Of a DNA stretch of 17,058 nt, positions 1 to 17,058 are shown in pieces. Origin of the DNA: a virus. Taxonomy: Duplodnaviria; Heunggongvirae; Uroviricota; Caudoviricetes. The translations under genes and the position numbers were made by a program. A model generated the notes under the pieces. That model was not told the DNA's origin. It did no database searches and worked only from the letters and a program-made list of their open reading frames with translations. The stretch covers positions 1-17,058 of the IMG/VR virus record IMGVR_UViG_2609460221_000007; one strand, written 5' to 3'. The stretch's first letter is position 1. Each line of letters begins with the position of its first letter.

Positions 1-303
1 GATGGTAAGGCCTTTCCTCAGCCAGCAGGTGCTGCGTTACCAGTCCGGGAAGCCGCAACACAGGAAGAAATTAAAACAGAAACTGTGGCGGACATTGTGC
101 AGCCGTTGCCATCGTTTACCGAAACGCAAGCAGATGAGCTGATTTTTCCGTCCCTTCGCAGGGCAAACCTGGCGCTGCGCAGGGCGAAAAGTGATGTTCA
201 GAAGTGGGAGCGAGTCTGCGCCGCGCTGCGGGAGCTGAACAAGCACCGGGATATTGTTCGACAGATTAGTGATTCTTCCCGCCGTGTTGTATCGGAAAAG
301 TGA
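1..303 (+). CDS. 3' end of an upstream gene (5' end outside window); hypothetical protein
   Basis: Frame 1 is open from base 1 to TGA at 301-303, co-directional with the downstream operon, and the stop is followed directly by the RBS of the next gene. No recognisable motif. Confidence 0.4.
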   Translation, partial: DGKAFPQPAGAALPVREAATQEEIKTETVADIVQPLPSFTETQADELIFPSLRRANLALRRAKSDVQKWERVCAALRELNKHRDIVRQISDSSRRVVSEK

Positions 304-318
304 TTGCCGGAGGCGCTT

Positions 319-711
319 ATGGCAAAAGTATTTACACCAGAAGAGCGGGAAGAAGTGAAGGCGCGCATTGTGGAATTCGTGCGCCTGAGCGGACGAGAAA
401 CTTTTCGACAACTGGCAGATAAAACGGGTGTCAGTAAGACCGCTATTCGTCGTTTATCTGGTGCGCTTGCGGCCAGTGGTGATGTCTGGCTCTCTGGTTG
501 CGGGGTATTTCCATCAGAGCAGGCGTATCGCGTATGGCGTAAGACACCGGAGAAGGCTGCTGACCCGACACTGATTCGAAAGTTACCTGACGGAGAAATA
601 CGTCGTTACAACAGACGGCAGAACATAATTTGTCGTGAGTGCCGCCAGAGCGAAGTCATGCAGCGTGTGCTGGCGTTCTATCGGGGAAACTTTCAGGAGG
701 TGATGGAGTGA
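319..711 (+). CDS. hypothetical protein with possible helix-turn-helix (…FRQLADKTGVSKTAIRRL…)
   Basis: ATG at 319 preceded by GGAGG (309-313). The ORF track extends to a TTG at 304, which is less likely. Stop TGA 709-711 overlaps the next start. Confidence 0.55.
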   Translation: MAKVFTPEEREEVKARIVEFVRLSGRETFRQLADKTGVSKTAIRRLSGALAASGDVWLSGCGVFPSEQAYRVWRKTPEKAADPTLIRKLPDGEIRRYNRRQNIICRECRQSEVMQRVLAFYRGNFQEVME

Positions 712-1004
712 GGGTGAGAGTTTATATTGCCGGTCCAATGACGGGATATGAAAATTTCAACCGTGAGGCGTTTCACAAGGCGGAAGAGGAACTGAAACGG
801 GAAGGGCATACCGTCTTAAACCCGGCAGTACTTCCGGACGGGCTGACACAGCCGCACTACATGGATATTTGCATGGCAATGATTCGTTGTGTGGATGCGA
901 TTTACATGCTGAATGGCTGGCAGCGGTCAGCGGGCGCTAAGGCAGAGCTGGCACTGGCGGAGAAACTGGGGCATGCGGTGATTTATCAGGAGGTGGCTCA
1001 ATGA
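708..1004 (+). CDS. DUF4406-like protein (nucleoside 2-deoxyribosyltransferase-like fold)
   Basis: GTG start at 708, 7 nt after AGGAGG (695-700), overlapping the upstream stop. N-terminal 'VYIAGPMTG' motif followed by 'NPA' and a conserved acidic C-terminal half, as recalled for DUF4406/NDT-like proteins. Confidence 0.5.
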   Translation: MRVRVYIAGPMTGYENFNREAFHKAEEELKREGHTVLNPAVLPDGLTQPHYMDICMAMIRCVDAIYMLNGWQRSAGAKAELALAEKLGHAVIYQEVAQ

Positions 1005-1462
1005 GAGAGGTTAACTATGAGGCGCTTCGTGAGGCAGCACAAAACTATCAGTCGACGCTGGCGTGGTATCAGGCTATCCCGGACAGNCCAAATGCTGAAC
1101 GGGATTGTGATGCGGCTCTTGCTGCGTTTAAGCGTCACATCCGTCATCGGGAAGCGGATATTATCGCTGATTTGCTGGATGGACTGGAAGAAGCAAAATC
1201 ACAACTCAACGAGCAGCGTGAGTATTACGAAGGCGTTATCTCTGATGGGAGTAAGCGTATTGCTGAACTGGAAGCGCGGGAAGTTCAATTACCGACTCGC
1301 TACGACCTTCGATATGGACACCCGATAAATGCAGATGAGCGACATGTCATGATACCTAAAGAAAATGGCAGTTGGCTTTACCTGATTGACCTAGAACACG
1401 CATTACGCGTCGCTGGCATTCGCATCAAAGGAGAGGAGCATGGAAATAAAACCAGAGGATGA
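1001..1462 (+). CDS. hypothetical protein (153 aa)
   Basis: ATG 1001 overlaps the upstream stop (ATGA); RBS AGGAGGTGG at 987-996. One ambiguous codon (n at 1087). Confidence 0.6.
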   Translation: MREVNYEALREAAQNYQSTLAWYQAIPDXPNAERDCDAALAAFKRHIRHREADIIADLLDGLEEAKSQLNEQREYYEGVISDGSKRIAELEAREVQLPTRYDLRYGHPINADERHVMIPKENGSWLYLIDLEHALRVAGIRIKGEEHGNKTRG

Positions 1463-1796
1463 GTTAAGCAATATCGTTTTATTTCCGGTAAAAGAGGATG
1501 ACCCTCGTAATCAGGTTAATTTTCTTTATGAGTCATCGGAAAGACCATATTGTCATCACGCCTCTGTTCGGGTTGACGAAAAAGAGCGTCAGGTCCGCTG
1601 TAAAATCTGCGGTGCAGTTGTGGAGCCGTTTGACTGGATGCTCTCTGTGGCGAAAAGAGAAACCAGACTGGCAGATGATGTAAGGCTATTGCGCCAGGAG
1701 GAACAGGAAAGGCGGAAAAATATAGAAAAGTTAATTCAGATTGAGCGTAACGCGAAAGCGCGGATATGCAGGGCGACAAAATCCAGAACTGAATAA
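1440..1796 (+). CDS. hypothetical protein with putative zinc-ribbon (C-HH…C-x2-C)
   Basis: ATG 1440 with RBS AAGGAGAGGAG (1428-1438); overlaps the 3' end of the upstream ORF by 23 nt; Cys/His cluster YCHH…CKICG. Confidence 0.55.
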   Translation: MEIKPEDELSNIVLFPVKEDDPRNQVNFLYESSERPYCHHASVRVDEKERQVRCKICGAVVEPFDWMLSVAKRETRLADDVRLLRQEEQERRKNIEKLIQIERNAKARICRATKSRTE

Positions 1797-1891
1797 TTAA
1801 ATTTAGCACTGTTAAAAATTTTATCCTTAACCGGAGGGATTTCTGCACCCTCAGAACATCAGGAGGCCGCCCGAAAGGGCGGTAATGAAAA

Positions 1892-2299
1892 ATGACTGAA
1901 TTAACAAAAGAGCAATTAATCGAAGAAGCCAAATTAAAAATAGCGATTGCGAAATGCCACACGAATTCAGGGATGGCACGGGTAGAGGGTGAGTTATTCA
2001 AAATTGCACTGGCATCGCTAGAAGCGGAACCGATAGCGTGGAAATGCGGCGAAAACATAATCCTGTTTAATCCTGACACAGTTGAAGCATACGCAAAACG
2101 TGCGGAGATATCACCTAAACCACTATTCGCAGCTCCACCTGTGCCGGTTGTGTCTGAAGGACTGGTTAAAGCCGTGCGCTTCTATGAAAAGGTTAAGCGT
2201 GAAAATCCGCCAGTCGAAACCGGAGCATGGAAAGACGCTGTTGACTGGGTGCTCAAAGAGGCCTGCCAGGTTGTAAACACTGGCATCAAAGGAGACTGA
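1892..2299 (+). CDS. hypothetical protein (135 aa); shares an 'EP(I/V)A(W/Y)…AAPPVPVVSE' region with the 328-aa protein at 2663-3649
   Basis: ATG 1892. An AGGAGG (1861-1866) is separated from the start by a GC hairpin (1867-1882). Stop 2297-2299 lies 1 nt before the next ATG. Confidence 0.6.
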   Translation: MTELTKEQLIEEAKLKIAIAKCHTNSGMARVEGELFKIALASLEAEPIAWKCGENIILFNPDTVEAYAKRAEISPKPLFAAPPVPVVSEGLVKAVRFYEKVKRENPPVETGAWKDAVDWVLKEACQVVNTGIKGD

Positions 2300-2300
2300 T

Positions 2301-2666
2301 ATGGCACTGACGAAAAAACAACGTGCAGAATTGCGCATGAAGTTTGGCGGTCGCTGTGCTTATTGCGGCTGTGAACTTGGCGAAAAGTGGCATGCAGACC
2401 ATGTAAAACCGGTCATTCGTTTTAATGGAAATATGCTTCACCAGGAACGTGACGATATATCCAACATGGTTCCGGCATGCCACCCATGCAATCTGCACAA
2501 GCATTGCAGTAGCCTGGAAGACTATCGGCGAATTATCAGTGATGGTCGTCGTGAATTCCTTGCGTCCGGGAAAGGCAAAGCGCTGGTTCGTATGGGATTG
2601 GTTGAAATGAAATCTGACCCGGTTGTGTTCTGGTTTGAAAAATATCAAGAAGGGGCTACAGCATGA
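2301..2666 (+). CDS. HNH endonuclease
   Basis: Canonical HNH motif directly visible in translation: C-A-Y-C-G…H-A-D-H-V-K-P…N-M-V-P-A-C-H-P-C-N-L-H-K. RBS AAAGGAGA (2288-2295). Confidence 0.8.
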   Translation: MALTKKQRAELRMKFGGRCAYCGCELGEKWHADHVKPVIRFNGNMLHQERDDISNMVPACHPCNLHKHCSSLEDYRRIISDGRREFLASGKGKALVRMGLVEMKSDPVVFWFEKYQEGATA

Positions 2667-3649
2667 CCACTATTACCAATAAGAAACAGTATCCCAGCGA
2701 GCAATATCTTAATGAGCTTATCACCAACATAGAGTTTGCTGCAAGGGCACCAGTTGAAGTCGTGAGCGCAATGGCAGCAGAGCTACAGAAGCGGCGCGAA
2801 GCTGATAGCGCAGAACCAGTTGCTTATATTTTCAAACATCCGGCCGGGAAATTATTCTGGGCTTTAACGGATGAAAGCAATAAAGAGCAAGCGGACGTTA
2901 TTCCTGTTTATGCCGCCCCTCCAGTGCCAGTAGTATCTGAAGAAAAACCAATGCCTAACCCTCTTAAAATGTACGCGGTCGATGATGTTGCCGCTATTGC
3001 AGAGGTGAGAGGCTGGAATGCCTACCGCGCCGCCATGCTTCAGAGTCAGGGGGAAGGCAACCCTCATGTAACCCCGGCTCGCCTGCCTGGTGGTTTCACC
3101 ATTGAGGATGCGAAGGTGTTACATGAAGACCTTGTACGTAGCCACATAAGCCAGGCTTTAAGTGGCGAAAAGATGAAAAAGAAAGATCGCGATGCTGATT
3201 TGCGCTGGATTCATGGCGTAATAGTTCAGGCCGCGTGGTTTGTAAAGGCATCACTGGAGCAGAATGCACTATCGGGCAACTCTCCGGTAATTCCTGGTGA
3301 GGTGTTGTCCGCAATCCGGGAGGTTGCCAGGATTCGCGCCGATTTCGATGATTTTGACGGTGACAGGCGAGGTATCGGTGATTGTCTGGATGAGGCCGAG
3401 CAAGAGCTTATCGTTACCATTAACAAATATGCCAGTCAGTTGGCAGTAGAGCCGGTAGTACCTGATGACGTTCTGGAACAGACAGTAGCGTCGCCAGCGC
3501 TAGGTAACCAGGTTAGCGAATTAACAATGTGGGTTAAACGACTGGTCAGTCAACTGAAAAAAGCTCAGCCGGACTGCAAATTACCGGAGAAGGCGATGGA
3601 TTACCTGAAACGAAATGGACTGATAAGCGTGGAGGATGTTTTACGATGA
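2663..3649 (+). CDS. hypothetical protein (328 aa); N-terminal region paralogous to the 1892-2299 product
   Basis: ATG 2663 overlaps the HNH stop (ATGA-type coupling). Long ORF with phage-like codon usage; contains the 'YAAPPVPVVSE' motif. Confidence 0.65.
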   Translation: MTTITNKKQYPSEQYLNELITNIEFAARAPVEVVSAMAAELQKRREADSAEPVAYIFKHPAGKLFWALTDESNKEQADVIPVYAAPPVPVVSEEKPMPNPLKMYAVDDVAAIAEVRGWNAYRAAMLQSQGEGNPHVTPARLPGGFTIEDAKVLHEDLVRSHISQALSGEKMKKKDRDADLRWIHGVIVQAAWFVKASLEQNALSGNSPVIPGEVLSAIREVARIRADFDDFDGDRRGIGDCLDEAEQELIVTINKYASQLAVEPVVPDDVLEQTVASPALGNQVSELTMWVKRLVSQLKKAQPDCKLPEKAMDYLKRNGLISVEDVLR

Positions 3650-3769
3650 ATATTTAGACTAAAGAGTTTGTAACGCTATGTAAGTGATTTTTTCTGGTTT
3701 AGATATTTATATGTCCGGCCAAATTGAGGTGTGTTTAAATGTTATTGCACATTGATTGTAGGGGGAATA

Positions 3770-3949
3770 ATGAAAAACGCATTGCAGTTTTTGTTTGTTG
3801 CGTTCTGGTTGTTCGCATCATGTATGCCCATCATCTTCACAGCAAGGTATATGGAAAAAATTGATGTTTTGATATTAATGTTTGGACATATAAATGCCCT
3901 TTTTTTAGGGGTGTTCATGGCGGTCATGTGCATTGAATACTGGCGGTAA
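3770..3949 (+). CDS. possible small two-helix membrane protein (59 aa)
   Basis: ATG 3770 preceded by GGGGGA (3761-3766); strongly hydrophobic translation (…LQFLFVAFWLFASCMPIIF… / …NALFLGVFMAVMCIEYW); AT-rich. Could be spurious. Confidence 0.3.
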   Translation: MKNALQFLFVAFWLFASCMPIIFTARYMEKIDVLILMFGHINALFLGVFMAVMCIEYWR

Positions 3950-4004
3950 ATACAGCGAACGCCATTGGTTTAGTTGGATATTTACTGTGCCGGACAAAAA
4001 CGGT

Positions 4005-4032
4005 TTGCGGGGAAATCTTAGTTAAGTAGAAT
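4005..4032 (+). promoter_or_regulatory. candidate sigma70 promoter for the hok transcript (TTGCGG -35, 16-nt spacer, TAGAAT -10)
   Basis: Hexamers read directly at 4005-4010 and 4027-4032; position is appropriate for a long hok leader. Not verified. Confidence 0.25.
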
Positions 4033-4151
4033 AACTGCGGGTGCTTGAGGCTATCTGTCTCAGGCATGAACACCAAAAGGCAGATAGAGAAAAGCCCCAG
4101 TTAACATTACGCGTCCTGCAAGACGCTTAACATTAATCTGAGGCCATATCT

Positions 4152-4211
4152 ATGCGACACATAGAGATTAGCCTCTTACGGACCGAAAGGTCAAGGAGAA
4201 GCAGGCTATGA
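4152..4211 (+). CDS. mok-like leader ORF translationally coupled to hok
   Basis: ATG 4152; 19 codons; stop TGA 4209-4211 overlaps the hok ATG (4208-4210). This is the arrangement expected for hok/mok loci. Confidence 0.3.
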   Translation: MRHIEISLLRTERSRRSRL

Positions 4212-4333
4212 AGCAGCAAAAGGCGATGTTAATCGNCCTGATCGTCATCTGTTTAACCGTCATAGTGACGGCACTGGTAACGAGGAAAGACCTCTGCGAG
4301 GTACGAATCCGAACTGGCAGACGGAGGCTCTGA
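4208..4333 (+). CDS. hok: Hok/Gef-family type I toxin (HokD/RelF-like)
   Basis: RBS AGGAGA (4193-4198); translation MKQQKAMLI(x)LIVICLTVIVTALVTRKDLCEVRIRTG… matches the Hok/Gef transmembrane core as recalled. The C-terminal tail as written (…RRRL*) differs from recalled homologues and may reflect a 1-nt indel or sequence error. Confidence 0.75.
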   Translation: MKQQKAMLIXLIVICLTVIVTALVTRKDLCEVRIRTGRRRL

Positions 4334-4415
4334 TTCGTAGACTACTAATCTGAGTAAAAGACCCAGCGGGGAAAGAACCACGCCGGGACTAGTTAATAAG
4401 ATATTTATAGCGTGG

Positions 4416-4757
4416 CTATTCTTTTTTTGCGGTATAGACTTTTTCGCCTGAGAAGTCTGGAGCTACCCAAAAGTTAATATTAAACTGAGCATCATCGCTT
4501 AGTTCAACACGGTGCCAGTATTGTGGTGGGCTTGTTGCAAAAGCGCCAGCATTAATGACTACTTTTATCTCCGGTTCAGTAGCATTCTCATCAGCAAAAC
4601 CATAATATGTTACAGTACCTTCCATCACGCATAACTGTCCAAAAACACCTGCTGCTGTATTATGATGTGTTAATAACGCTGAAGGTACGTTCTCTTTTGT
4701 GAAGAACGGAGTTGAGCGTTTGATTACCCAGTCTTTAGGAATTCTCTTGTGTGTCAT
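4416..4757 (-). CDS. YeaR-like / DUF1971 family protein (TehB-associated cupin-like domain)
   Basis: Start ATG (MTHKR…) preceded on the minus strand by GGGAGGTG. Translation shows RSTPFF…VMEGTVTYYGFADENATEPE…FNINFWVAP, closely paralleling the recalled E. coli YeaR pattern. Convergent with hok. Confidence 0.6.
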   Translation of the reverse strand: MTHKRIPKDWVIKRSTPFFTKENVPSALLTHHNTAAGVFGQLCVMEGTVTYYGFADENATEPEIKVVINAGAFATSPPQYWHRVELSDDAQFNINFWVAPDFSGEKVYTAKKE

Positions 4758-5124
4758 AACCACCTCCCATAAAACATGCATTATAAATGCACCTTTTTGA
4801 GGGTTATGTCAAGCTGTTATGAAACACATAATTGATATGTTGATTAGAGGAGAAGATAGAATCAATATGGTTGTTTTTCGTATAACTATTTGTTTTACTT
4901 TTAGTTTGTGCATTCTGTGTGTTAGGAATAACTTATTAAAGTTTAACTAAAAAATCTCGATATAGTCCGCATAGATTACTGTTACTGAATCTTATTGTGT
5001 GCATTAGTTGTGTTCTGAAATTTCAATTTAATTACTTATGATATATTTTTAACGATAAATGTTTTCCGGGTGAAAGACAGTGGGGGATGAGATAAGCAAT
5101 ATATCATTAATCTTGATTATTTCC

Positions 5125-5186
5125 AGGATGCCTTTACTGTGCATATAAATAAATCATATACGCATCAAATAATGTAAAGGCATCCT
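5125..5186. repeat. perfect 13-bp inverted repeat (AGGATGCCTTTAC … GTAAAGGCATCCT) with 36-nt AT-rich spacer
   Basis: Arms at 5125-5137 and 5174-5186 are exact reverse complements, read directly; lies in an ORF-free AT-rich region. Confidence 0.6.
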
Positions 5187-5625
5187 TTTAGATATATCTT
5201 ATCAAATGTTAATGATTTGAGTGGGAAACATGATTCCAGAAACTAATCATGCGGCTACTTTATAAAAATAATGCCCATATAAAACAGCCAGCGAAAAGGA
5301 TTACGGATAAAAAAGGAGCGAGATGTGCATAGTTGTTATTTTCCATGTTTAACCACCTTAAATAATTGATGATGACGGGATGTGCATCTGTAATGCTTTT
5401 GTTGAAATGTTATGATNAAAAAAGAACTTTTTCATAACATTAAAATGTAATTTATCTAATCGTTTTTAATAATAAGTGTTGTATTTCTATCCTTGTATCA
5501 GCTATTTGATATGTAGTGTTTGTTCATGTTATGTGGAGCTTTACACCATAGCCAGTTTATTTATACTTTATTCGTCAGCCTGAACAACTGGCATCTGCTG
5601 CACTGCGCCATCGAGAGATTGAGAA

Positions 5626-6225
5626 ATGGCGCATATACAACTGGTCAAACAAACCTCTTCTGGACTACTTCTCCCGGCGACGCCGGAGAGTTGCGATTTT
5701 TTGCATCAAATCAAAATAGGCGAGTGGATACACGCAGACTTTAAGCGTGTGCGTAACTACGCATTCCACAAGCGTTTTTTCAAACTCCTGCAACTGGGAT
5801 TCGATTACTGGACTCCGGTCGGTGGGGCGATCACGCCTCGCGAACGAAAGCTGGTTTCAGGATTCGTTGATTACCTATGTGAATCAGTAGGCCGGGAACA
5901 TACGCCAGCTCTGAGCGAAGCCGCAGAGCAATATCTGAATACAGTTGCGACACGCAGAACCCGGGATACGGCATTGCTAAAGTCGTTTGAGGCTTTCCGC
6001 GAGTGGGTAACCATTCAGGCCGGATTTTACACCGAGCATCTTTATCCTGATGGTAGCCATGGGCGTCGGGCGAAATCCATCGCTTTTGCGAATATGGACG
6101 AAACCGAGTTTCAGCAGGTTTATAAATCTGTTCTGAATGTGCTGTGGAACTGGATTCTGTTCCGTAAATTTTCCTCTCCGGAACAAGTCGAAAATGTGAC
6201 CGCGCAGCTGCTGGAGTTTGCGTAA
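5626..6225 (+). CDS. lambdoid nin-region protein (possibly DUF1367 family)
   Basis: 199-aa ORF immediately upstream of and abutting the ybcO-like gene; GC content returns to the phage-core level. Family assignment is from memory of the gene order in lambdoid prophages. Confidence 0.55.
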   Translation: MAHIQLVKQTSSGLLLPATPESCDFLHQIKIGEWIHADFKRVRNYAFHKRFFKLLQLGFDYWTPVGGAITPRERKLVSGFVDYLCESVGREHTPALSEAAEQYLNTVATRRTRDTALLKSFEAFREWVTIQAGFYTEHLYPDGSHGRRAKSIAFANMDETEFQQVYKSVLNVLWNWILFRKFSSPEQVENVTAQLLEFA

Positions 6226-6515
6226 TGGTGGATTTACGTAAAGCGGCGCGGGGGCAGATGTGCACCGTCAGAATTCCTGGCTACTGCAATCACGATCCGG
6301 AAACGTCTGTGCTGGCGCATTACCGACTGGCGGGAACGTGCGGAACAGCGACAAAACCACACGATATGCAGGCGGCGATTGCCTGTAGCTCATGCCACGA
6401 TCTAATCGACGGGCGGGTAAAAACCAGCGATTACACCAAAGAAGAATTACGCCTGATGCATGCAGAAGGTGTTTTTCGCACACAAGAAATCTGGAGAAAG
6501 GAGGGATATTTGTGA
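6225..6515 (+). CDS. YbcO-like (DUF1364) Cys-rich nin-region protein, putative nuclease
   Basis: 96 aa; Cys cluster (C-x…CNHDPETSVLAHYRL…C…CSSCHDLID) resembles the YbcO family as recalled; stop overlaps the Q start (GTGA). Confidence 0.6.
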   Translation: MVDLRKAARGQMCTVRIPGYCNHDPETSVLAHYRLAGTCGTATKPHDMQAAIACSSCHDLIDGRVKTSDYTKEELRLMHAEGVFRTQEIWRKEGYL

Positions 6516-7054
6516 TTTACCCAACGAATACAGGAAAAAGCGGAGAACACCTTCGTCTCGCCACGCTGGAAAGTGTCTGGATTCAGGGCAAACTGCGTAT
6601 GTGGGGGCGCTGGTCGTATATTGGCGGTGGCAGGTCAGGAAATATGTTCAATCAGTTGTTGGCATCCAAAAAATTGACGAAAACAGCCATCAATGAAGCC
6701 CTGCGCAGAATGAAAAAAGCGGGAATAGAGAAAGCTGAGCTGGAAGCGTTTTTGCGAGAGATGATCAACGGCAAGCAAAAGAGCTGGCTGGCGCATTGTA
6801 CTGATGCAGAGGCGTTATGTATTGATCGAGTCATAAGTGAGGTGCTGGCAGAGCATCCTGGATTGATTAGTGTCCTCCGGCAACGGTATGAAGGACGGGG
6901 GATGACTAAGCGCAAAATGGCTGAATTGCTAAATGATGCACATCCTGAGTGGTGTTTTAGCACATGCGAAAAGCGAATTGCTAATTGGTTGGCTGTTGCT
7001 GAGTATGCCCTATATATTCCCATGCGAGAATCATTTGCTCAAAAAATAGCTTGA
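6512..7054 (+). CDS. late-gene antiterminator Q-like protein
   Basis: GTG start 6512 preceded by GGAGGG; position immediately upstream of a promoter/terminator region and the lysis cassette; basic, Cys-containing protein. The call is mainly positional. Confidence 0.55.
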   Translation: MIYPTNTGKSGEHLRLATLESVWIQGKLRMWGRWSYIGGGRSGNMFNQLLASKKLTKTAINEALRRMKKAGIEKAELEAFLREMINGKQKSWLAHCTDAEALCIDRVISEVLAEHPGLISVLRQRYEGRGMTKRKMAELLNDAHPEWCFSTCEKRIANWLAVAEYALYIPMRESFAQKIA

Positions 7055-7138
7055 TTTTTTACGCATAAACTGCTTCAATTCCGGTATGCTTCGCAAAGCT
7101 GTATCGCGAGGCGAACCAAGCGCATGAACTTTACCAGA

Positions 7139-7166
7139 ACCCGCCATTGAGCGGGTTTTGTTGTTT
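7139..7166 (+). terminator. tR'-like intrinsic terminator downstream of Q
   Basis: Stem AACCCGC/GCGGGTT with 6-nt loop (cattga), followed by TTTTGTTGTTT, about 85 nt after the Q stop. This is the arrangement expected for the pR'/tR' late regulatory region. Confidence 0.55.
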
Positions 7167-7275
7167 CTGGTACTGGTGAACCTGATGTTTCATTTCTGGA
7201 GCGCGATTCCTGGCGGAATACCTAGAATCGAGACATTCTGGTAAAATTGTTTTCAGTACAGGATGTGGAGGTGAG

Positions 7276-7845
7276 ATGAGAGAACTACCTAAAGATTATT
7301 TTTTAGGAGTAGATGATGAGCTCGTCGATTATCTTGAAAAACAAGGGGAAGAGACGATACGAGAGATTCATCTTTCTAACAAAACCAATGTTGAGAATGG
7401 ATACAAACTTCTGAACATTCAGATTGTTGGAATTGGTTCATCTTTTTTATTGCTGACACAGAAAACTAATTTCGATTTTCTCACCGCCGGAATTACCACA
7501 TTTACATTACTATGGACATGGTGCGCCATTTACTTGGTATGTACTGGTTTATCTGTGAAGGTTAGGGGCCTGATCAATGCCCCTCCTGATCATCTATATC
7601 ATGAAAAATATAAGGATATGGAGCCCTCGAGCTTTAAAATATTCGCTGATGCAGGATATTTAGGACCTGATAAGTTATTGCCGCTTATACGAAGGTATCG
7701 CCTTGTTGACTTGAGTGATACAGCAAGAGAGTTACTGTTGGAAAATGAGAAAATCCGCACGAGTCTCGATAAAGCAAGGATGTATACCATCCTTGCTCCG
7801 GTAGCGGCGATGTTTATCTCGGCTGTTTTTTTATATGTTCAATGA
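7276..7845 (+). CDS. uncharacterised 189-aa membrane protein (three predicted TM helices); cargo gene in the Q-S position
   Basis: ATG 7276 with GGAGG upstream; AT-rich relative to flanking phage genes; hydrophobic segments IVGIGSSFLLL, AGITTFTLLWTWCAIYLVCTGL and C-terminal ILAPVAAMFISAVFLYV. No recognisable family. Confidence 0.6.
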   Translation: MRELPKDYFLGVDDELVDYLEKQGEETIREIHLSNKTNVENGYKLLNIQIVGIGSSFLLLTQKTNFDFLTAGITTFTLLWTWCAIYLVCTGLSVKVRGLINAPPDHLYHEKYKDMEPSSFKIFADAGYLGPDKLLPLIRRYRLVDLSDTARELLLENEKIRTSLDKARMYTILAPVAAMFISAVFLYVQ

Positions 7846-8068
7846 CTGAGTCGGCAGAATCTCCAACAAAAACACGACGTGTAGCAAAGTCTGTAGTACT
7901 TTGTGTTGGAGTTGGTTTTGGTGCCACGGGTTGCTGAGGTTTATTTTCACCTTGTGGTTTGTTTTTTCAGANCATAAAAATCCTCTTTGTTTGAATTGTT
8001 ACTTTTGGCGATTTAACGATATCAAACACGAGTATATACCGCCAGAAGCTTAATCTGGCACTCCATCT

Positions 8069-8094
8069 GGCCCCGGCATGTCCCGGGGCTTTTT
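8069..8094 (+). terminator. intrinsic terminator between the cargo gene and the holin
   Basis: GC stem GCCCCGG/CCGGGGC with 6-nt loop followed by TTTTT (8090-8094); read directly. Confidence 0.65.
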
Positions 8095-8192
8095 CGTTGT
8101 TAGGCTCTGGAAACATCCTCGACTTCTTGTTAGCAAGCCTGAGAGCCTGAATCTTACACTTAGCACCATCCGAACTCTCGGAGGTGAGGCTT

Positions 8193-8534
8193 ATGAAAAT
8201 GCACAATGCCCCTCATTCCTGGCCTGACTTACTGGAACTCTTACAAAGTTGGTGGCGTGGAGATACGCCGCTGGGTGCAGTGGTTATGTCAATTATTATG
8301 GCTGGTTTGCGCATTGCCTATTTTGGCGGTGGCGGCGGCTGGAAACGAAAAACGCTTGAGATTCTGCTTTGTGGTGCTCTGACGCTGACCTTTGCATCCG
8401 CGCTTGAGTATGTCGGATGGCCTAAATCACTTTCTGTTGCCATTGGTGGTGGGGTGGGGCTGATTGGTGTTGATGCTATTCGTGGTGCGGCAATGAGGGT
8501 CATCGGTAACAAGTTCGGTGCCCATAAGGAGTAA
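8193..8534 (+). CDS. S: holin, lambda S family, with Met-Lys-Met dual-start motif
   Basis: GGAGG (8180-8184) then ATG-AAA-ATG (8193/8199); translation has the three hydrophobic segments and charged C-terminus of lambda S; directly upstream of the R endolysin. Confidence 0.85.
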   Translation: MKMHNAPHSWPDLLELLQSWWRGDTPLGAVVMSIIMAGLRIAYFGGGGGWKRKTLEILLCGALTLTFASALEYVGWPKSLSVAIGGGVGLIGVDAIRGAAMRVIGNKFGAHKE

Positions 8535-8537
8535 TTA

Positions 8538-9014
8538 ATGCAGACACTTAATTCCCAGCGTAAAGCTTTCCTTGATATGGTGGCATGGTCAGAAGGAACA
8601 GATAACGGACGGCAGAAAACCAGAAATCACGGTTATGATGTTATTGTCGGTGGCGAACTGTTCACTGATTACTCCGATCACCCCCGCAAACTTGTCACGC
8701 TAAATCCGAAACTCAAATCAACAGCCGCTGGACGTTACCAGCTTCTTTCACGCTGGTGGGATGCCTACCGCAAGCAACTTGGCCTGAAAGATTTTTCTCC
8801 AGAAAGTCAGGATGCTGTAGCGCTGCAGCAGATTAAAGAGCGTGGCGCTTTGCCGATGATTGATCGCGGTGATATCCGTCAGACTATCGACCGTTGCAGC
8901 AATATATGGGCTTCACTGCCGGGCGCTGGTTATGGTCAGTTCGAGCATAAGGCTGACAGTCTGATTGCAAAATTCAAAGAAGCTGGCGGAACGGTCAGAG
9001 AGATTGAGGTATGA
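8538..9014 (+). CDS. R: endolysin, lambda R-type lytic transglycosylase
   Basis: Translation (…[47 protein letters not shown]…) is near-identical to lambda R as recalled; RBS AAGGAG. Confidence 0.9.
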
Positions 9015-9484
9015 GCAGAGTAACCGCGATTATCTCCGCTCTGGTTATCTGCATCGTCGTCTGCCTGTCATGGGGTGTTAATCATTACCGTGATAACGCC
9101 ATCGCCTACAAAGAACAGCGCGACAAAAATGCCAGAGAACTGAAGCTGGCGAACGCGGCAATTACTGACATGCAGATGCGTCAGCGTGATGTTGCTGCGC
9201 TCGATGCAAAATACACGAAGGAGTTAGCTGATGCGAAAGCTGAAAATGATGCTCTGCGTGATGATGTTGCCGCTGGTCGTCGTCGGTTGCACATCAAAGC
9301 AGTCTGTCAGTCAGTGCGTGAAGCCACCACCGCCTCCGGCGTGGATAATGCAGCCTCCCCCCGACTGGCAGACACCGCTGAACGGGATTATTTCACCCTC
9401 CGGGAACGACTGGTAATGATGCAGGCCCAACTTGAAGGTGCTCAGCAATACATAACCGAGCAGTGTTTNAAAGTAAAATCTTAA
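9011..9484 (+). CDS. Rz: i-spanin Rz
   Basis: N-terminal TM segment then coiled-coil periplasmic domain, near-identical to lambda Rz as recalled; an ambiguous base at 9468 makes the exact stop uncertain. Confidence 0.85.
9231..9416 (+). CDS. Rz1: o-spanin Rz1 lipoprotein, embedded in the +1 frame of Rz
   Basis: Lipobox LVVVGC followed by a proline-rich segment ([15 protein letters not shown]), near-identical to lambda Rz1 as recalled; lies entirely inside Rz. Confidence 0.85.
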
Positions 9485-9613
9485 CTACAATATGATTCAT
9501 TTTGATGATTGTTTCATAAGGAACAGTGAAGTAAGATCTAAGAGGAGTTAAATTTTATACAGTATAATCATAATATTGCAGCAAGGTGGTTATAATTGAA
9601 AGAATATTTAGAT

Positions 9614-11074
9614 ATGAATACATCTCATGTAAGAGTTGTTACTCATATGTGTGGGTTCCTGGTTTGGCTCTATAGTCTTTCAATGTTGCCACCAATGGTT
9701 GTAGCATTGTTTTATAAAGNAAAAAAGCCTGTTCGTTTTCTTTATAACTTTCGTTATATTTTTTTGCATTGGTGGCGGAGCGTGGTATACAACTAAGAAA
9801 TCTGGCATTCAATTACGTANCCGTGATGGGTTTATTATAATTGTAATGTTTTGGATTTTGTTTTCTGTTATTAGTGCATTCCCTTTATGGATTGACTCAG
9901 AACTTAATTTAACGTTCATTGATGCTCTGTTTGAAGGGGTTTCTGGAATAACAACAACAGGAGCAACTGTAATTGATGATGTTAGTTCATTACCTCGGGC
10001 ATATTTGTACTATCGGTCACAGTTAAATTTTATAGGTGGTTTAGGAGTTATTGTTCTGGCGGTTGCTGTATTGCCATTATTGGGTATTGGTGGTGCAAAG
10101 CTTTATCAGTCAGAAATGCCGGGGCCATTTAAGGATGACAAACTCACTCCCCGCCTGGCCGATACGTCACGGACACTGTGGATAACTTATTCTTTATTAG
10201 GTATTGCTTGTATTGTCTGTTATAGACTTGCAGGAATGCCTTTGTTTGATGCTATTTGTCACGGGATTTCCACAGTTTCGCTTGGTGGTTTCTCAACTCA
10301 TAGCGAGAGTATCGGATATTTTAATAACTATTTGGTTGAGCTGGTGGCTGGTTCTTTTTCCCTGCTATCGGCTTTCAACTTCACTCTTTGGTATATTGTT
10401 ATTAGCAGGAAAACGATAAAACCTTTAATCAGAGATATTGAACTTCGTTTCTTTCTGTTAATAGCCTTAGGGGTGATCATTGTTACCTCTTTCCAGGTCT
10501 GGCATATAGGTATGTATGACTTGCATGGAAGTTTTATTCATTCGTTTTTTCTTGCCAGCTCCATGCTCACTGATAATGGTTTAGCTACGCAGGATTATGC
10601 AAGTTGGCCCACGCACACGATAGTGTTTTTGCTGTTGTCAAGTTTCTTTGGGGGATGTATAGGTTCAACTTGTGGTGGAATTAAGTCACTTCGATTTCTT
10701 ATACTTTTCAAACAAAGCAAACACGAGATAAATCAGCTTTCTCATCCCAGAGCGTTGTTGAGTGTAAATGTAGGAGGGAAGATAGTTACAGATCGTGTAA
10801 TGAGGTCTGTATGGAGTTTCNTTTTTTCTTTATACTCTCTTCACGGTGTTTTTTATACTGGTGTTAAATGGTATGGGATATGATTTTCTTACATCATTTG
10901 CAACAGTGGCTGCATGTATTAATAATATGGGATTAGGTTTTGGGGCTACTGCATCGTCATTCGGAGTGCTTAATGACATTGCAAAATGTTTAATGTGCAT
11001 AGCTATGATTCTTGGTCGCCTTGAAATTTATCCTGTTATTATATTGTTTTCAGGNTTTTTTTTGGCGCTCCTAA
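9614..11074 (+). CDS. trkG: potassium uptake protein TrkG (Trk system membrane component); reading frame interrupted only at ambiguous bases
   Basis: Three consecutive ORF fragments (frames shift at n 9720, n 10821, n 11055, each in a homopolymer run) together translate to a TrkH/TrkG-type polytopic transporter starting MNTSHVRVV… and ending …FFWRS* when the frame is corrected. AT-rich. Known cargo of Rac-type prophages. Confidence 0.8.
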
Positions 11075-11160
11075 TATATGGCTGATTTATAATTGTGAGT
11101 TTAATATTATGTTGACTCACTCATTGATCCAATACCTAACTTTACCAGCAACACCTCCGT

Positions 11161-11195
11161 CCCCAGTAGCACTGGCTGCTGGGGTGCGTTTTATT
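11161..11195 (+). terminator. putative terminator after trkG
   Basis: 10-bp stem CCCCAGTAGC/GCTGCTGGGG (one G-U) with ACTG loop, followed by TGCGTTTTATT; the U-tract is offset by 4 nt, so strength is uncertain. Confidence 0.4.
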
Positions 11196-11211
11196 CATAA
11201 AGCAAGGCTGT

Positions 11212-12003
11212 ATGAGCGAGAAATTAAAGATAGTCTATCGCCCATTACAAGAATTGTCACCGTATGCGCACAACGCCAGGACGCACAGTACTGAGCAGGT
11301 GGCACAACTGGTAGAAAGTATTAAGCAATTCGGCTGGACTAATCCGGTGCTGATTGACGAAAAGGGCGAAATTATTGCGGGTCACGGTCGTGTTATGGCG
11401 GCTGAAATGCTCAAAATGGATTCTGTTCCGGTCATTGTTCTGTCTGGCCTGACGGATGAGCAGAAAAAGGCGTACCGCCTGGCAGATAATCGCCTGCCGA
11501 TGAATGCTGGCTGGGATGAAGATCTGTTGCGGATGGAGCTGTCGGACCTAATCAATGCTGATTTTGATGTCTCCCTGACAGGCTTCATCCCGACAGAAAT
11601 TGATGAACTGTTGACGGATGTTTTGCCCGGTACAGGAAATGAGGAGGAGCCGTATACGACGAAAATTGATACGCCTGTTTATGAGCCGTCGGGCGGTAAA
11701 CCGGATATCAGTGAACTGTACGACGATACGAAAACTCAGGAGCTGATCAGCCGGATACGTTCGGCGTCCCTTGAGCCTGATATTGAGAAATTCCTCCTGT
11801 GTGCGGCAGAACGTCACACGGTGTTTAATTTCAGCAGAATTGCGGACTATTACGCTCACGCCCCCTCTGAAATTCAGTGTTTTTTCGAGGAGTCGGCGCT
11901 GGTGATCATTGATTATCAGCAGGCTATTGAAAATGGATTTGTCCGGATGACGCAGCGCATGGTGGAGATCATGCATGGTGGTGAGGAGGAGGAATATGCG
12001 TGA
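11212..12003 (+). CDS. ParB-like nuclease domain (ParB/Srx N-terminal domain) protein
   Basis: N-terminal region with the characteristic …PVLIDEKGEIIAGHGRVMAA… ParB-N motif; acidic C-terminus; stop overlaps the next start. Confidence 0.75.
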   Translation: MSEKLKIVYRPLQELSPYAHNARTHSTEQVAQLVESIKQFGWTNPVLIDEKGEIIAGHGRVMAAEMLKMDSVPVIVLSGLTDEQKKAYRLADNRLPMNAGWDEDLLRMELSDLINADFDVSLTGFIPTEIDELLTDVLPGTGNEEEPYTTKIDTPVYEPSGGKPDISELYDDTKTQELISRIRSASLEPDIEKFLLCAAERHTVFNFSRIADYYAHAPSEIQCFFEESALVIIDYQQAIENGFVRMTQRMVEIMHGGEEEEYA

Positions 12004-12928
12004 TGATTTTTGCGCCTTTATTCTGACTCACGGGCGACCGGACAAAGTTCTGACTTACCGGACGTTGCGTCGTGCTGGCTATACCGGGAAAATTTTTATC
12101 GTTGTTGATGATGAAGATAAGACACGGCATCAGTACATGGCTGAATTTGGGGAACAGGTGCTGGTGTTTTCCAAAGCCGATATCGCCAGTCGTTTTGACG
12201 AAGCCGATAATTTCTGTGACCGCCGCTCAATTTTTTACGCCCGTAATGCCTGTTTCGACCTGGCAAAACTGGTCGGGTGTAAATACTTCATTCAGCTCGA
12301 TGATGATTATCACGAGTTCCAGTTTCGGGTGGATCGCAACTATGACCAGGCCTATTTTCCGATAAGGAAACTGGATGCGATCCTTTCTGAAATGCTGGCG
12401 TACTACGAATCAATACCTGCTCTTTCCATCGCTATGTCGCAGGGCGGGGATTTTCTTGGTGACAATGGCGGCCATGCTTCGTGGGTGAAACGCAAGGCAA
12501 TGAACAGCTTTATCTGTTCGGTTGAACGACCGTTCTCATTCATGGGGCGCATTAACGAGGATGTGAATACGTACACGAATCTCGGTCGCTGTGGTGAATT
12601 GTTTATGACGATCGGTGCTGTCCAGTTAGGGCAGAAACAGACGCAGAAAAACAGCGGCGGAATGACCGAGCTGTATCTGGATTCCGGAACCTACGTTAAA
12701 AGTTTTTACTCCGTCATGTATGCGCCGTCGTGCGTAAAAATCTCACTGATGGGTGCCAGCCATAAACGCATTCACCATCAGGTCACCTGGAACAACGCTG
12801 CAGTAAAAATCCTTCACGAAAAATACAGGAAGAAGACACCCTGCATATCAATGGGGGTGACAAATGATTCCGTATTCGAAAGTCGAGTCTCTGGCAGCGT
12901 GCCGGATGACTGCACAACAAATCGCTGA
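11996..12928 (+). CDS. GT-A-fold glycosyltransferase-like protein (nucleotide-sugar transferase-like, DxD motif)
   Basis: ATG 11996 preceded by GGAGGAGG, overlapping the ParB-like stop (ATGCGTGA). Translation shows AFILTHGRP…IFIVVDDED…FIQLDDDY, the beta-strand/DxD pattern of GT-A enzymes; no TM segments. Function inferred from motif only. Confidence 0.55.
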   Translation: MRDDFCAFILTHGRPDKVLTYRTLRRAGYTGKIFIVVDDEDKTRHQYMAEFGEQVLVFSKADIASRFDEADNFCDRRSIFYARNACFDLAKLVGCKYFIQLDDDYHEFQFRVDRNYDQAYFPIRKLDAILSEMLAYYESIPALSIAMSQGGDFLGDNGGHASWVKRKAMNSFICSVERPFSFMGRINEDVNTYTNLGRCGELFMTIGAVQLGQKQTQKNSGGMTELYLDSGTYVKSFYSVMYAPSCVKISLMGASHKRIHHQVTWNNAAVKILHEKYRKKTPCISMGVTNDSVFESRVSGSVPDDCTTNR

Positions 12929-13115
12929 CGTTCTGGATGTTGATCTGAACCGACTGAAAGAAAATCGGGAAGCAATGACAGATTTTTATGCGGCCATCCG
13001 TAAGGGCAGAGCGAAAGGTGAAGCCGAGTTACGAGCGGCATTGTTTAAGCTTGCCAGAAAAGGGGATGCCTTTGCTCTGCGCGAACTACTCAGGGTGGAT
13101 AAAAATCAGGACTAA
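12864..13115 (+). CDS. small hypothetical protein, possible HTH (…MTAQQIADVLDVD…)
   Basis: ATG 12864 preceded by GGGGGTG; overlaps the 3' end of the upstream gene by 65 nt (an alternative start ATG at 12906 would reduce this); stop abuts the TerS start. Confidence 0.45.
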   Translation: MIPYSKVESLAACRMTAQQIADVLDVDLNRLKENREAMTDFYAAIRKGRAKGEAELRAALFKLARKGDAFALRELLRVDKNQD

Positions 13116-13118
13116 CTG

Positions 13119-14213
13119 ATGAGCAGACCGGACTGGGGGGCGTTGCAGCAGGAGTATATTGCTGAATACACCCGCTCCGGTATATCTCCGGTGGCATGGT
13201 GTGAAGCAAGGGGACTGAATTACGCAACAGCCCGTCGTTACATCAAAAAAACTCCGAAAAATGCGCAGACAGAAATGTGCAAAACTGCGCAAAAAAGTGC
13301 GCAGAAAAAATCTGCGCAGACTGCACAAAAGCGGAACGAAAAATCTCAGGAAAAAAAGCCAGTATTCGATGCGGGCCTGAATGAGGGCGACGCGGAGGAA
13401 TTTTCGTTCTGTCCCGATGAATTCGGCATTTCTGACCAGCAGGCTAAGTTTGCGATGCTTGTTGCTCAGGGTAAAAAGCCGACAGAGGCGTACCGACTAG
13501 CCGGTTATGAGGGGCAAGGTGCGACAGCTAATAGCAACGCCAGTCGTATGCTTAGAAATGCCAGGGTTTTTCGCGCTATCAGCTACTTCCGCAATCAGTA
13601 CCAGAAACGCTATACCGCAGACCTGGATTTACTAGTGAGTCAGTTGATGGCCATTGTCCTGGCCGACCCCAATCAGCTTGCACAATTTCGCCGTGTTAAC
13701 TGCCGTTATTGCTGGGGCGAGAATCATCTCTACCAGTGGCGCGATATAGCAGAATTCGACAAGGCAGCGGCGCAGGCTTCCAGAGATGGCAAACCCGAAC
13801 CGGAATATGGANGCCTCGGCTTTGTTGATAACGCCATACCCAATCCGGACTGCCCGAAGTGCTGCGGTGAGGGAACGGGACAGCTTTATATGGCTGATAC
13901 CACTCTGCTTGATGGGGATGCGCGGCAATTATATGCAGGGGCAAAATTCGGAAAATTCGGCGTTGAGATCCTGCTGGAGGATAAGGCTGCCGCCCGGCGT
14001 GAATTGTTGCGTTTGCTTTCTGCTGGCGGGGCTTTATGTGCAGATAAGCGGCTACAGGAACTGGAAATTGAACGGCGCAGAATGGAAAACCAGAAGCTGC
14101 GCAAAGAGATCGAAACGGTGGAAGATAATGAACATCCCCAGCCTGTGGCGATCAATATTAATGTGGTTGATGCCAGAGTAAGGAGTGATGAAGATGATCT
14201 CTCCGACGCTTAA
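13119..14213 (+). CDS. terminase small subunit (Terminase_2-like core with N-terminal HTH and C-terminal CxxC…CxxC zinc-ribbon/coiled coil)
   Basis: Core …AKFAMLVAQGKKPTEAYRLAGYEGQGATANSNASRMLRNARVFRAISYF… is typical of phage TerS; immediately upstream of the large terminase; one ambiguous codon (n 13811). Confidence 0.7.
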   Translation: MSRPDWGALQQEYIAEYTRSGISPVAWCEARGLNYATARRYIKKTPKNAQTEMCKTAQKSAQKKSAQTAQKRNEKSQEKKPVFDAGLNEGDAEEFSFCPDEFGISDQQAKFAMLVAQGKKPTEAYRLAGYEGQGATANSNASRMLRNARVFRAISYFRNQYQKRYTADLDLLVSQLMAIVLADPNQLAQFRRVNCRYCWGENHLYQWRDIAEFDKAAAQASRDGKPEPEYGXLGFVDNAIPNPDCPKCCGEGTGQLYMADTTLLDGDARQLYAGAKFGKFGVEILLEDKAAARRELLRLLSAGGALCADKRLQELEIERRRMENQKLRKEIETVEDNEHPQPVAININVVDARVRSDEDDLSDA

Positions 14214-15495: not shown

Positions 15496-15497
15496 TT

Positions 15498-17058
<1,561 letters not shown>

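Follow-up and report, generated by a model that had tools for sequence, protein, structure and literature searches.

Lambdoid phages classically contain mosaic accessory regions in which the gene boundaries are conserved. The mosaicism has been explained by a boundary-sequence model (Susskind and Botstein 1978; Clark et al. 2001; summarised in PMC3233612) and, alternatively, by illegitimate recombination followed by selection for intact genes (PMC3233612). The closest described counterparts of the locus reported here are the ren-nin region of phage lambda (P-ren-ninB...ninI-Q) and the ea or exo-xis region of lambda, P22 and the Stx phages. We analyzed a block of seven genes, g1 to g7, at positions 319-3649 (+ strand) of a stretch of viral DNA of 17,058 nucleotides (nt), the IMG/VR record IMGVR_UViG_2609460221_000007, positions 1 to 17,058, which is called the window in the following. 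An earlier note on this DNA had suggested that the block could be a nucleotide- or DNA-targeting accessory module. Our analysis points with good confidence to a different explanation, namely a mosaic array of cassettes which occupies a variable site for cargo genes, within the rightward early operon of an E. coli lambdoid prophage of the Rac type, and gives no sign of working as a joint machine.

The block shares several features with the ren-nin region of lambda. It occupies the same rightward delayed-early place after the replication genes and shows the same chain of stop and start codons. Moreover, g1 is homologous to Ren and g6 resembles NinG/Rap over the catalytic core. In contrast to the lambda region, the block is devoid of NinB, C, D, E, F, H and I as judged by Pfam, and the nin-like genes of the window (DUF1367, YbcO and DUF1133/Q-like; 5626-7054) are located further downstream, past hok/sok. 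No Nin family scored above threshold in g1 to g7. Thus, the block is indeed not a textbook nin region, as the earlier note had remarked. That note had also suggested accessory rather than core replication functions, and the genes are indeed accessory. Two of the seven open reading frames (ORFs) have named lambda counterparts, Ren and Ea22.

The ea or exo-xis region is the second point of comparison. Here, g3 is a homologue of Ea22, and counterparts of g4, the 3' end of g5 and the HNH gene g6 are found in the leftward operon of the Stx2a phage ArgO145. As has been described for Ea22 (PMC7093339, PMC10834534), the proteins of the array have a modular build and vary at their C-termini. Unlike the ea region, the array of the window lies in a rightward operon, and g5 and g7 stay below the Pfam Ead_Ea22 model. 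Overall, the block is a mosaic accessory region of the ordinary lambdoid prophage type. It is widely shared and has been annotated before, every gene belongs to an existing family, and the result matters little as it stands.

Anatomy of the block and its junctions

The block and the gene directly upstream comprise the following features (aa, amino acids):

1-303, + strand: DUF1627 gene upstream of the block (3' part only), homologous to ydaW of K-12 Rac and outside the seven genes (PF07789, E 6e-57)
319-711, + strand: g1, DUF977, Ren-like winged-helix protein of 130 aa (PF06163, E 2e-41; weak helix-turn-helix matches)
708-1004, + strand: g2, DUF4406 protein of 98 aa with a nucleoside deoxyribosyltransferase (NDT)-like fold, putatively an N-glycosidase or transferase with a nucleoside or nucleotide as substrate (PF14359)
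1001-1462, + strand: g3, Ead/Ea22-family protein of 153 aa, homologue of lambda Ea22 (PF13935, 46.5 bits, cut-off 27; one N base at 1087)
1440-1796, + strand: g4, 118 aa, C-x-H...C-x2-C knuckle followed by a long basic helix (phrog_1621, E 3e-55)
1797-1891, + strand: sole intergenic spacer of the block (Shine-Dalgarno sequence AGGAGG at 1861-1866; hairpin at 1866-1883, just ahead of the ATG at 1892)
1892-2299, + strand: g5, 135 aa, Ea22-array type (phrog_660, positions 3-143 of 193, that is the first three quarters, E 1e-50)
2289-2678, + strand: g6 cassette, HNH ORF 2301-2666 (121 aa), flanked at both ends by a conserved boundary sequence of 12 nt (AAAGGAGACTGAT-ATG ... GC-ATGA-CCACTATTACC)
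2663-3649, + strand: g7, composite protein of 328 aa, Ea22-array type (phrog_6847, phrog_14306, phrog_660)

The genes are joined as follows; junction sequences of the array are AAAGGAGACTGATATG and GCATGACCACTATTACC:

g1/g2: start 708, stop 711, GTGA overlap
g2/g3: start 1001, stop 1004, ATGA overlap
g3/g4: start 1440, stop 1462, 23-nt overlap
g4/g5: start 1892, stop 1796, 95-nt gap
g5/g6: start 2301, stop 2299, 1-nt spacer
g6/g7: start 2663, stop 2666, ATGA overlap

All seven ORFs, which the earlier note had placed at these coordinates, are contained in the ORF list for the + strand, and the junctions were read directly from the sequence. The best start of g1 is the ATG at 319, which is preceded by GGAGG at 310-314. 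Every ORF matches a PHROG family with E values between 1e-41 and 1e-57. Consequently, the seven are genuine genes and not chance ORFs. Stops and starts overlap or abut at five of the six junctions. The proposed coupling through the whole block therefore holds for these five and does not extend to g4/g5 with its 95-nt gap. At each coupled start a Shine-Dalgarno sequence (AGGAGG, AAAGGAGA or GGAGAGGAG) lies within the final codons of the preceding gene. A terminator scan found no terminator-like site on the + strand inside the block. Within the rightward early operon the seven genes thus make up a single string that is free of terminators and, except at the g4/g5 gap, translationally coupled, and to this extent the co-translation suggested before is supported.

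The spacings between P, ren, the nin genes and Q of lambda follow the same pattern (-4, 73, -4, -4, -34, -4, -11, -4, -23 and -4). Since the lambda nin string is equally coupled among functionally unrelated genes, coupling is no sign of joint function in the block. It is a built-in property of conserved junctions which contain Shine-Dalgarno sequences, as in the lambda nin region.

The spacer in front of g5 contains a stable hairpin (GCCGCCC-GAAA-GGGCGGT, 1866-1883) with a GC stem of 7 bp and a GAAA loop of the GNRA type. The RNA fold z-score for positions 1790-1910 is -2.4. The AGGAGG is located 25 nt upstream of the g5 start with the hairpin in between, and folding would shorten this distance. 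A comparable hairpin brings the Shine-Dalgarno sequence nearer to the start of gene 38 of phage T4. No known RNA family was detected in the spacer by an Rfam search, whose only match in the window was sok, outside the block.

Independent assortment of the genes

Annotated prophage DNA which is 100% identical to the first 4.2 kb of the window is present in strain 7/2 and in many other E. coli chromosomes. In strain 7/2 the gene order is integrase ... cro, YdaT, DnaT-like, P, DUF1627, the block, hokD, rem, DUF968, RusA, Q, lysis genes and terminase. RefSeq labels the seven genes DUF977, DUF4406, ead/Ea22-like, hypothetical, hypothetical, HNH endonuclease and hypothetical. The remainder of the window is similar to K-12 Rac and carries hok/sok, DUF1367, YbcO, a Q-like DUF1133 gene, holin, lysozyme, Rz, trkG, a ParB-like gene and terminase. 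The full-length DUF1627 copy of strain 7/2 shows 60% identity to K-12 YdaW. In K-12 Rac (locus L167, 5753-6313) ydaW diverges past approximately residue 150 and rzpR follows directly; therefore, the seven-gene block sits at the internal deletion of K-12 Rac. The nearest relative of the whole window among complete genomes is 99.2% identical on both sides of the slot and contains, between DUF977 and hok, only a gene for a 167-aa hypothetical protein and a KilA-N gene. The presence of different genes in the slot of such a closely related prophage indicates that the block fills a variable cargo slot.

The distribution of the genes was determined in 5426 complete E. coli genomes. The whole block, counted at 80% or more of a 4.2-kb query, was found in 128 genomes, the DUF4406 gene in 1202 and the HNH gene (at least 80% coverage) in 385. 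Additionally, we examined IMG/VR viral contigs, 80 of them anchored on DUF4406 genes at least 96% identical to g2 and 80 on the HNH gene. Eight proteins and the window DNA were mapped onto these loci, and gene order was tallied in 159 of them. The full order from g1 to g7 was present in 4 of the 80 DUF4406-anchored loci, a count on which the truncation of some of these loci by contig ends bears. Around the HNH gene, roughly thirty combinations of other block genes were observed, or none of these genes at all. No INPHARED phage record covered at least 80% of the block, and fragments of the block occurred in 360 records.

Single genes of the block also appear at quite different places. The leftward operon of ArgO145 carries an Ea22-type gene followed by g4 with the same 23-nt overlap, as well as the HNH gene with its neighbours, between the recombination genes and int. 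There, g4, the 3' end of g5 and the HNH gene have about 95% nucleotide identity and the same junctions. In Edwardsiella a 63%-identical DUF4406 gene is part of a P22-like leftward ea region adjoining int. A Yersinia prophage contains a DUF4406 gene after Q, a 74%-identical HNH gene stands directly after NinB in the nin region of Yersinia prophages, and in Comamonas the HNH gene lies near int. Thus, "ea" genes move between the leftward early operon and its rightward counterpart. The seven genes are not inherited together as a module, and the cassettes assort independently.

These data bear directly on the earlier proposal that the seven genes form one co-functional module in which the NDT-like enzyme, the HNH nuclease and their helpers act together on nucleotides or DNA. 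In favour of such a module are the coupling of the genes on one transcript, the presence of an NDT-fold enzyme alongside an HNH nuclease, and the conservation of the exact combination at 100% identity in the 128 complete genomes. However, DUF4406 and HNH genes are far commoner than the combination, the full order is rare even among near-identical DUF4406 loci, and the HNH gene has at least 16 upstream and at least 13 downstream flank types. Furthermore, other genera hold the two genes apart in different operons, the content of the slot is replaced in a closely related prophage, the functionally unrelated nin genes of lambda are coupled likewise, and PADLOC finds no system. The distribution largely refutes the joint-module idea, which we consider extremely improbable.

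The borders of the assorting units were most evident for the HNH gene. Homology to the window begins at 2288/2289 in 62 of 78 usable HNH-anchored loci and ends at 2678/2679 in 58 of 79. This delimits a cassette of about 390 bp whose borders lie 12 nt outside the ORF on both sides. The flank types were counted over 300 nt beyond these borders, and they occur in many pairings. The genes upstream of the HNH gene are mutually unrelated and all end in ...KGE*, ...KGD* or ...KES*. These endings are encoded by AAAGGAGAnTGA, which serves as ribosome-binding site for the gene that follows. The genes downstream all start with MTT(I/F)T or MTTN. Over all loci, 60% of 693 homology breakpoints were located within 30 nt of a gene junction, zones that make up 16% of the region; this enrichment is descriptive and no statistical test, as the loci are mutually related. 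The commonest breakpoint, with 60 ends of high-scoring segment pairs, is 1889/1890 at the end of the spacer. The DNA to the left of it (1-1890; g0 to g4 plus the spacer) is mostly one unit of 96-99% identity in the DUF4406-anchored loci and breaks off sharply at this position.

Based on these observations the array would consist of seven single-gene cassettes which are inherited and swapped independently. After induction or infection they would be expressed from one early rightward transcript, with ribosomes being handed from gene to gene via the Shine-Dalgarno junctions. As homology between prophages begins and ends at the conserved junctions (...AAAGGAGAnTGAnATG..., ...GCATGACCACnATTACC...), these may act as boundary sequences for cassette swaps. 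Recombination at the junctions would be the exchange mechanism, both between different phages and between the leftward (ea/exo-xis) and the rightward (nin) operons. Each product would act separately on the early interplay of phage and host.

Several points weigh against this explanation. The loci are not independent samples, which limits the breakpoint enrichment to a description. Sharp borders at junctions are equally expected under illegitimate recombination with subsequent selection (PMC3233612). The movement of the left part (1-1890) as a unit could reflect a shared function; recent common descent explains it equally well, because these loci were chosen for near-identity. Finally, the activities assigned to g1, g2, g4 and g6 are derived from homology only. 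We nevertheless favour the mosaic array of independent cassettes, and the block is a clean example of Shine-Dalgarno-containing junctions doubling as recombination boundaries.

Predicted products of the cassettes

The assignment of g6 as an HNH endonuclease, already made in the earlier note, was corroborated. The protein scores 31.7 bits against PF01844 (cut-off 21.4) and matches phrog_2118 (E 1e-56). Residues C19, C22, H31, D33, H34, N55, C60, C63, N64 and K67 are invariant in 27 homologues. Accordingly, g6 displays the beta-beta-alpha-Me motif, the D-H general base, the Asn and the two CxxC zinc pairs of HNH enzymes. BLASTP related it to the HNH core of lambda NinG/Rap with an E value of 5e-5; the Pfam NinG model remained below threshold (18.9 versus 25.4 bits). 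The best sequence match in the PDB was the small HNH protein 4h9d (E 0.047). Members of the family occur in several genera, and both the protein length and the full set of catalytic residues are preserved at identities as low as about 50%. We regard g6 as a likely Rap-like recombination nuclease which would cut branched or specific DNA.

Free-standing HNH homing endonucleases are known from T4-like phages, and mobE of T4 is a phage HNH gene of this kind (PMC2790892). Like MobE, g6 is a small HNH protein encoded between other genes with cassette-like presence and absence. A selfish g6 of this type would cut junctions which lack the HNH gene, copy itself in and thereby drive part of the mosaicism. 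The discrete nature of the cassette (about 390 bp, delimited 12 nt outside the ORF), its many flank combinations and the occurrence of other genes at the same junction in related loci (for example L019) would fit such behaviour. However, homology stops abruptly at conserved junctions instead of fading in a gradual co-conversion tract, and the 121-aa protein has no recognisable DNA-recognition domain or extension beyond the HNH core. The gene is conserved across genera like an ordinary phage gene under selection, it resembles Rap/NinG and stands directly after NinB in Yersinia nin regions. An empty site with the two flanks of the window was absent from the 159 loci. Homing by g6 is therefore rather unlikely, and we retain the view of g6 as one exchangeable cassette among seven.

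Other small genes are found at the place of the HNH gene in related prophages (L019, 7893-8800; L014, 7531-8046). One related prophage carries an ORF of 56 aa at this place which shares its last 14 residues with the HNH protein (VFWFEKYQEGATA). The shared end and the undivided g5/g7-type gene described below indicate that modules are also exchanged within genes, at short motifs such as ALASLEAEPV.

The first gene of the block, g1, belongs to phrog_142, annotated as "Ren-like exclusion protein" (E 1e-43). BLASTP detected lambda Ren with an E value of 4e-9, and both proteins share the C-terminal motif ECRQS..M.RVLA.Y. The position of g1 downstream of the replication genes is also Ren-like, with one gene (DUF1627) between P and g1. 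To judge from these similarities, g1 is a Ren homologue and likely a Ren-type DNA-binding protein or involved in escape from exclusion. An assignment of g1 to the retron-toxin-blocking YdaW family was considered and ruled out; YdaW corresponds to the upstream DUF1627 gene (60% identity), which is unrelated to g1.

The DUF4406/NDT-like assignment of g2 passed both the profile and the fold search. Residues 4-93 align with positions 2-91 of the 91 positions of PF14359 (E 5.7e-38, 129.7 bits, cut-off 22), and phrog_355 (NDT) was matched with an E value of 3e-48. An AlphaFold2 (AF2) model calculated with 31 homologues reached a predicted local distance difference test score (pLDDT) of 91 and a predicted template modelling score (pTM) of 0.85. 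The top PDB matches of this model in Foldseek were the NDTs 2a0k and 8pqr, the CMP N-glycosidases MilB and BcmB, and DNPH1, followed by TIR domains. Template modelling (TM) scores normalised to the query were about 0.73-0.79, with a probability of 1.00 for NDTs, MilB/BcmB and DNPH1. Among the 31 homologues Y6, D53, S74, G76 and E80 are invariant, the last three forming an S74-x-G76-x-x-x-E80 motif. In the model E80 is located at the start of helix 75-87, after strand 64-67. The active sites of NDT and DNPH1 contain a catalytic set of Tyr, Asp and Glu. The invariant Tyr, Asp and S-x-G-x-x-x-E of g2 resemble this set, the presumed equivalence of the residues being drawn from established knowledge of these enzymes. 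By homology, g2 likely removes or exchanges the base on a nucleoside or nucleotide. Whereas its predicted fold matches the enzymes of the NDT, DNPH1 (Rcl) and MilB/BcmB superfamily, g2 is shorter (98 aa versus their 130-160 aa), belongs to the separate Pfam family DUF4406 and has no relative in the PDB at the sequence level. Neither a single-sequence nor a profile search of the PDB gave one, apart from a spurious profile match to an O-succinylhomoserine sulfhydrylase.

The Ren and NDT similarities raise the question whether the slot is a hot spot for defence or counter-defence, in which single cassettes exclude phages or neutralise host immunity, with DUF4406, the Ren-like and the HNH gene as candidates. 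A variable cargo site in otherwise identical prophages with early expression would suit this role, as would the homology of g1 to an annotated exclusion protein. In its fold, DUF4406 resembles enzymes that cleave N-glycosidic bonds, TIR domains among them, and the fold is shared with NDT-type immune effectors. Moreover, actinophage DUF4406 relatives are fused to or annotated beside a MazG-like pyrophosphatase or a dCMP deaminase. The family of the neighbouring ydaW/DUF1627 gene scored as a blocker of a retron-Sen2 toxin in an overexpression screen, where ydaW is listed as a blocker of RcaT (bioRxiv 10.1101/2020.06.22.160242).

These hints contrast with the results of the defence searches. The check with a defence finder which the earlier note had recommended yielded only generic similarity of the HNH protein to PtuB. 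The search against PADLOC-DB v2 revealed no known defence system with a complete set of components in the block. There was no match to a PADLOC model for g2 to g5 or g7, a chance-level mad1 match for g1 (E 0.008), and for g6 only generic HNH models (PtuB, E 3e-8; PDC-M01B) with no partner ATPase. An NCBIfam search of the block proteins gave only matches far below threshold. The resemblance to retron NDT-like effectors and to Septu PtuB is thus limited to the NDT-type fold of g2 and the HNH core of g6, and both proteins are much shorter than the effector models. Neither a reverse transcriptase nor a PtuA ATPase gene is among the annotated genes around the 7/2 copy, and Rfam detected no retron RNA in the window. 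A full-text literature search retrieved papers that only mention DUF4406, and none on its function. In addition, the block is transcribed with the lytic early genes, and expression from a repressed prophage is not obvious. Taken together, a dedicated defence or counter-defence slot appears unlikely, although conceivable.

A more specific proposal is that one single cassette has an undescribed role in the conflict between phage and host. The foremost candidate would be DUF4406. As a minimal NDT/TIR-like N-glycosidase in phages of many hosts it might destroy a nucleotide-derived immune signal or edit the nucleotide pool early in infection. The second would be the HNH protein, which might cut at the conserved junctions and drive the exchange of Ea22-type cassettes. 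We regard this proposal as improbable. DUF4406, the small Rap-like HNH protein and the g4 protein are nonetheless abundant phage families and cheap targets for functional screens.

Of the remaining cassettes, g3 is by its sequence a true Ea22 homologue. BLASTP gave an E value of 2e-17 against lambda Ea22, with a near-identical stretch of 20 residues (LNEQREYYEGVISDGSKRIA). The C-terminus of lambda Ea22 reads AGIRIKGE. A pro-lysogenic role has been described for Ea22 (PMC7093339, PMC10834534), and g3 likely favours lysogeny in the same way.

The g4 family was found only in Enterobacterales. Its C-x-H...C-x2-C is nearly invariant among the homologues, and LRxEExxRRxNIEKLIQIERNAKARIRR is the most conserved part. 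The AF2 model (pLDDT 73) contains two strands (43-46 and 51-54) forming a small beta-hairpin (pLDDT 54-78) and a helix of 55 residues (63-117). The description of g4 as a zinc-ribbon protein is sustained in part. The nearly invariant knuckle speaks for it; the Pfam Zn_Ribbon_TF score of 21.6 bits stays under the cut-off of 29, and the fold search with Foldseek gave no significant match, the best being the TFIIB ribbon (E 0.17). A sequence search of the PDB yielded chance-level matches only. Three database proteins (P0121, P0160 and P0163) are in-frame fusions of Ea22 or DUF977 sequence to g4, which suggests occasional fusion of adjacent cassettes through a change of frame where junctions overlap, or an annotation that creates this appearance.

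Neither g5 nor g7 matched any Pfam family or reached the Ead_Ea22 model. They share a segment of 49 residues (43% identity, E 4e-5) and the families phrog_660, phrog_5117 and phrog_60, in agreement with the earlier description of two proteins with paralogous domains. Apparently, both are tied to the Ea22 type through common PHROGs and modules only. The PHROG matches of g7 cover residues 1-97 (phrog_6847, E 2e-55), 202-294 (phrog_14306) and 281-328 (phrog_660). Its modules are an N-terminal MTTIT...AEPVAY...AAPPVPVVSE, a middle module and a C-terminal module of 48 aa common to phrog_660 proteins. A sequence search of the PDB gave no match for g7, and its similarity to lambda Ea22 was not significant. 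RefSeq starts this last gene at window position 3035 (204 aa) and leaves 370 nt unannotated (2663-3034; 17667-18034 in L001). The 328-aa ORF from 2663 is better supported, because phrog_6847 covers residues 1-97 and the MTTIT/ATGA overlap is conserved in many contexts.

The locus L014 (7531-8046) contains an undivided gene of 171 aa which combines a variant N-terminus, the C-terminal part of g5 and the last 48 aa of g7. This gene, together with the extension of phrog_660 over g5 and the g7 tail, was in favour of g5 being a gene split by insertion of the HNH cassette. The idea was rejected, as the short g5-type ending ...KEACQVVNTGIKGD* recurs elsewhere with other genes behind it. The short ending is therefore regarded as one of several possible C-terminal modules rather than as the result of a disruption.

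The surrounding prophage

The window, which includes 10 N bases altogether, contains the following further features outside the block:

4039-4333: type I toxin-antitoxin locus hok/sok, which immediately follows the block (sok RF01794, 106.7 bits); the Hok/Gef ORF starts from 4208 and its reading is disturbed by one N base
7276-7845, + strand: ORF of 189 aa (phrog_11870, E 6e-108, a family of unknown function), flanked by the Q-like gene and the holin gene
9596-11085: trkG-like gene for a potassium transporter (TrkH family, E 1e-106), placed as in Rac with the lysis genes on one side and the ParB-like gene on the other; split into several ORFs by ambiguous N bases
11212-12003, + strand: ParB_N-domain protein (PF02195, phrog_620; PADLOC Type II methyltransferase, N-terminal part, E 1.5e-38)
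11975-12928, + strand: TET-associated glycosyltransferase (PF20691, E 1e-34; phrog_842 "beta-glucosyl-HMC-alpha-glucosyltransferase", E 2e-103)
16348-17052, - strand: IS3-family transposase gene (rve domains) interrupting a DUF4055 portal-like gene that starts at 15498

The 189-aa ORF gave no match in Pfam and PADLOC searches, and its site is a classic moron position. The 3' end of the ParB_N gene overlaps the start of the glycosyltransferase gene, and the two lie directly upstream of the small terminase gene. They are a candidate DNA-modification pair. The corresponding site of K-12 Rac is occupied by ynaK, which resembles a truncated remnant of the ParB-like gene. Since the portal-like gene is interrupted by the IS3 transposase, the prophage is probably defective.

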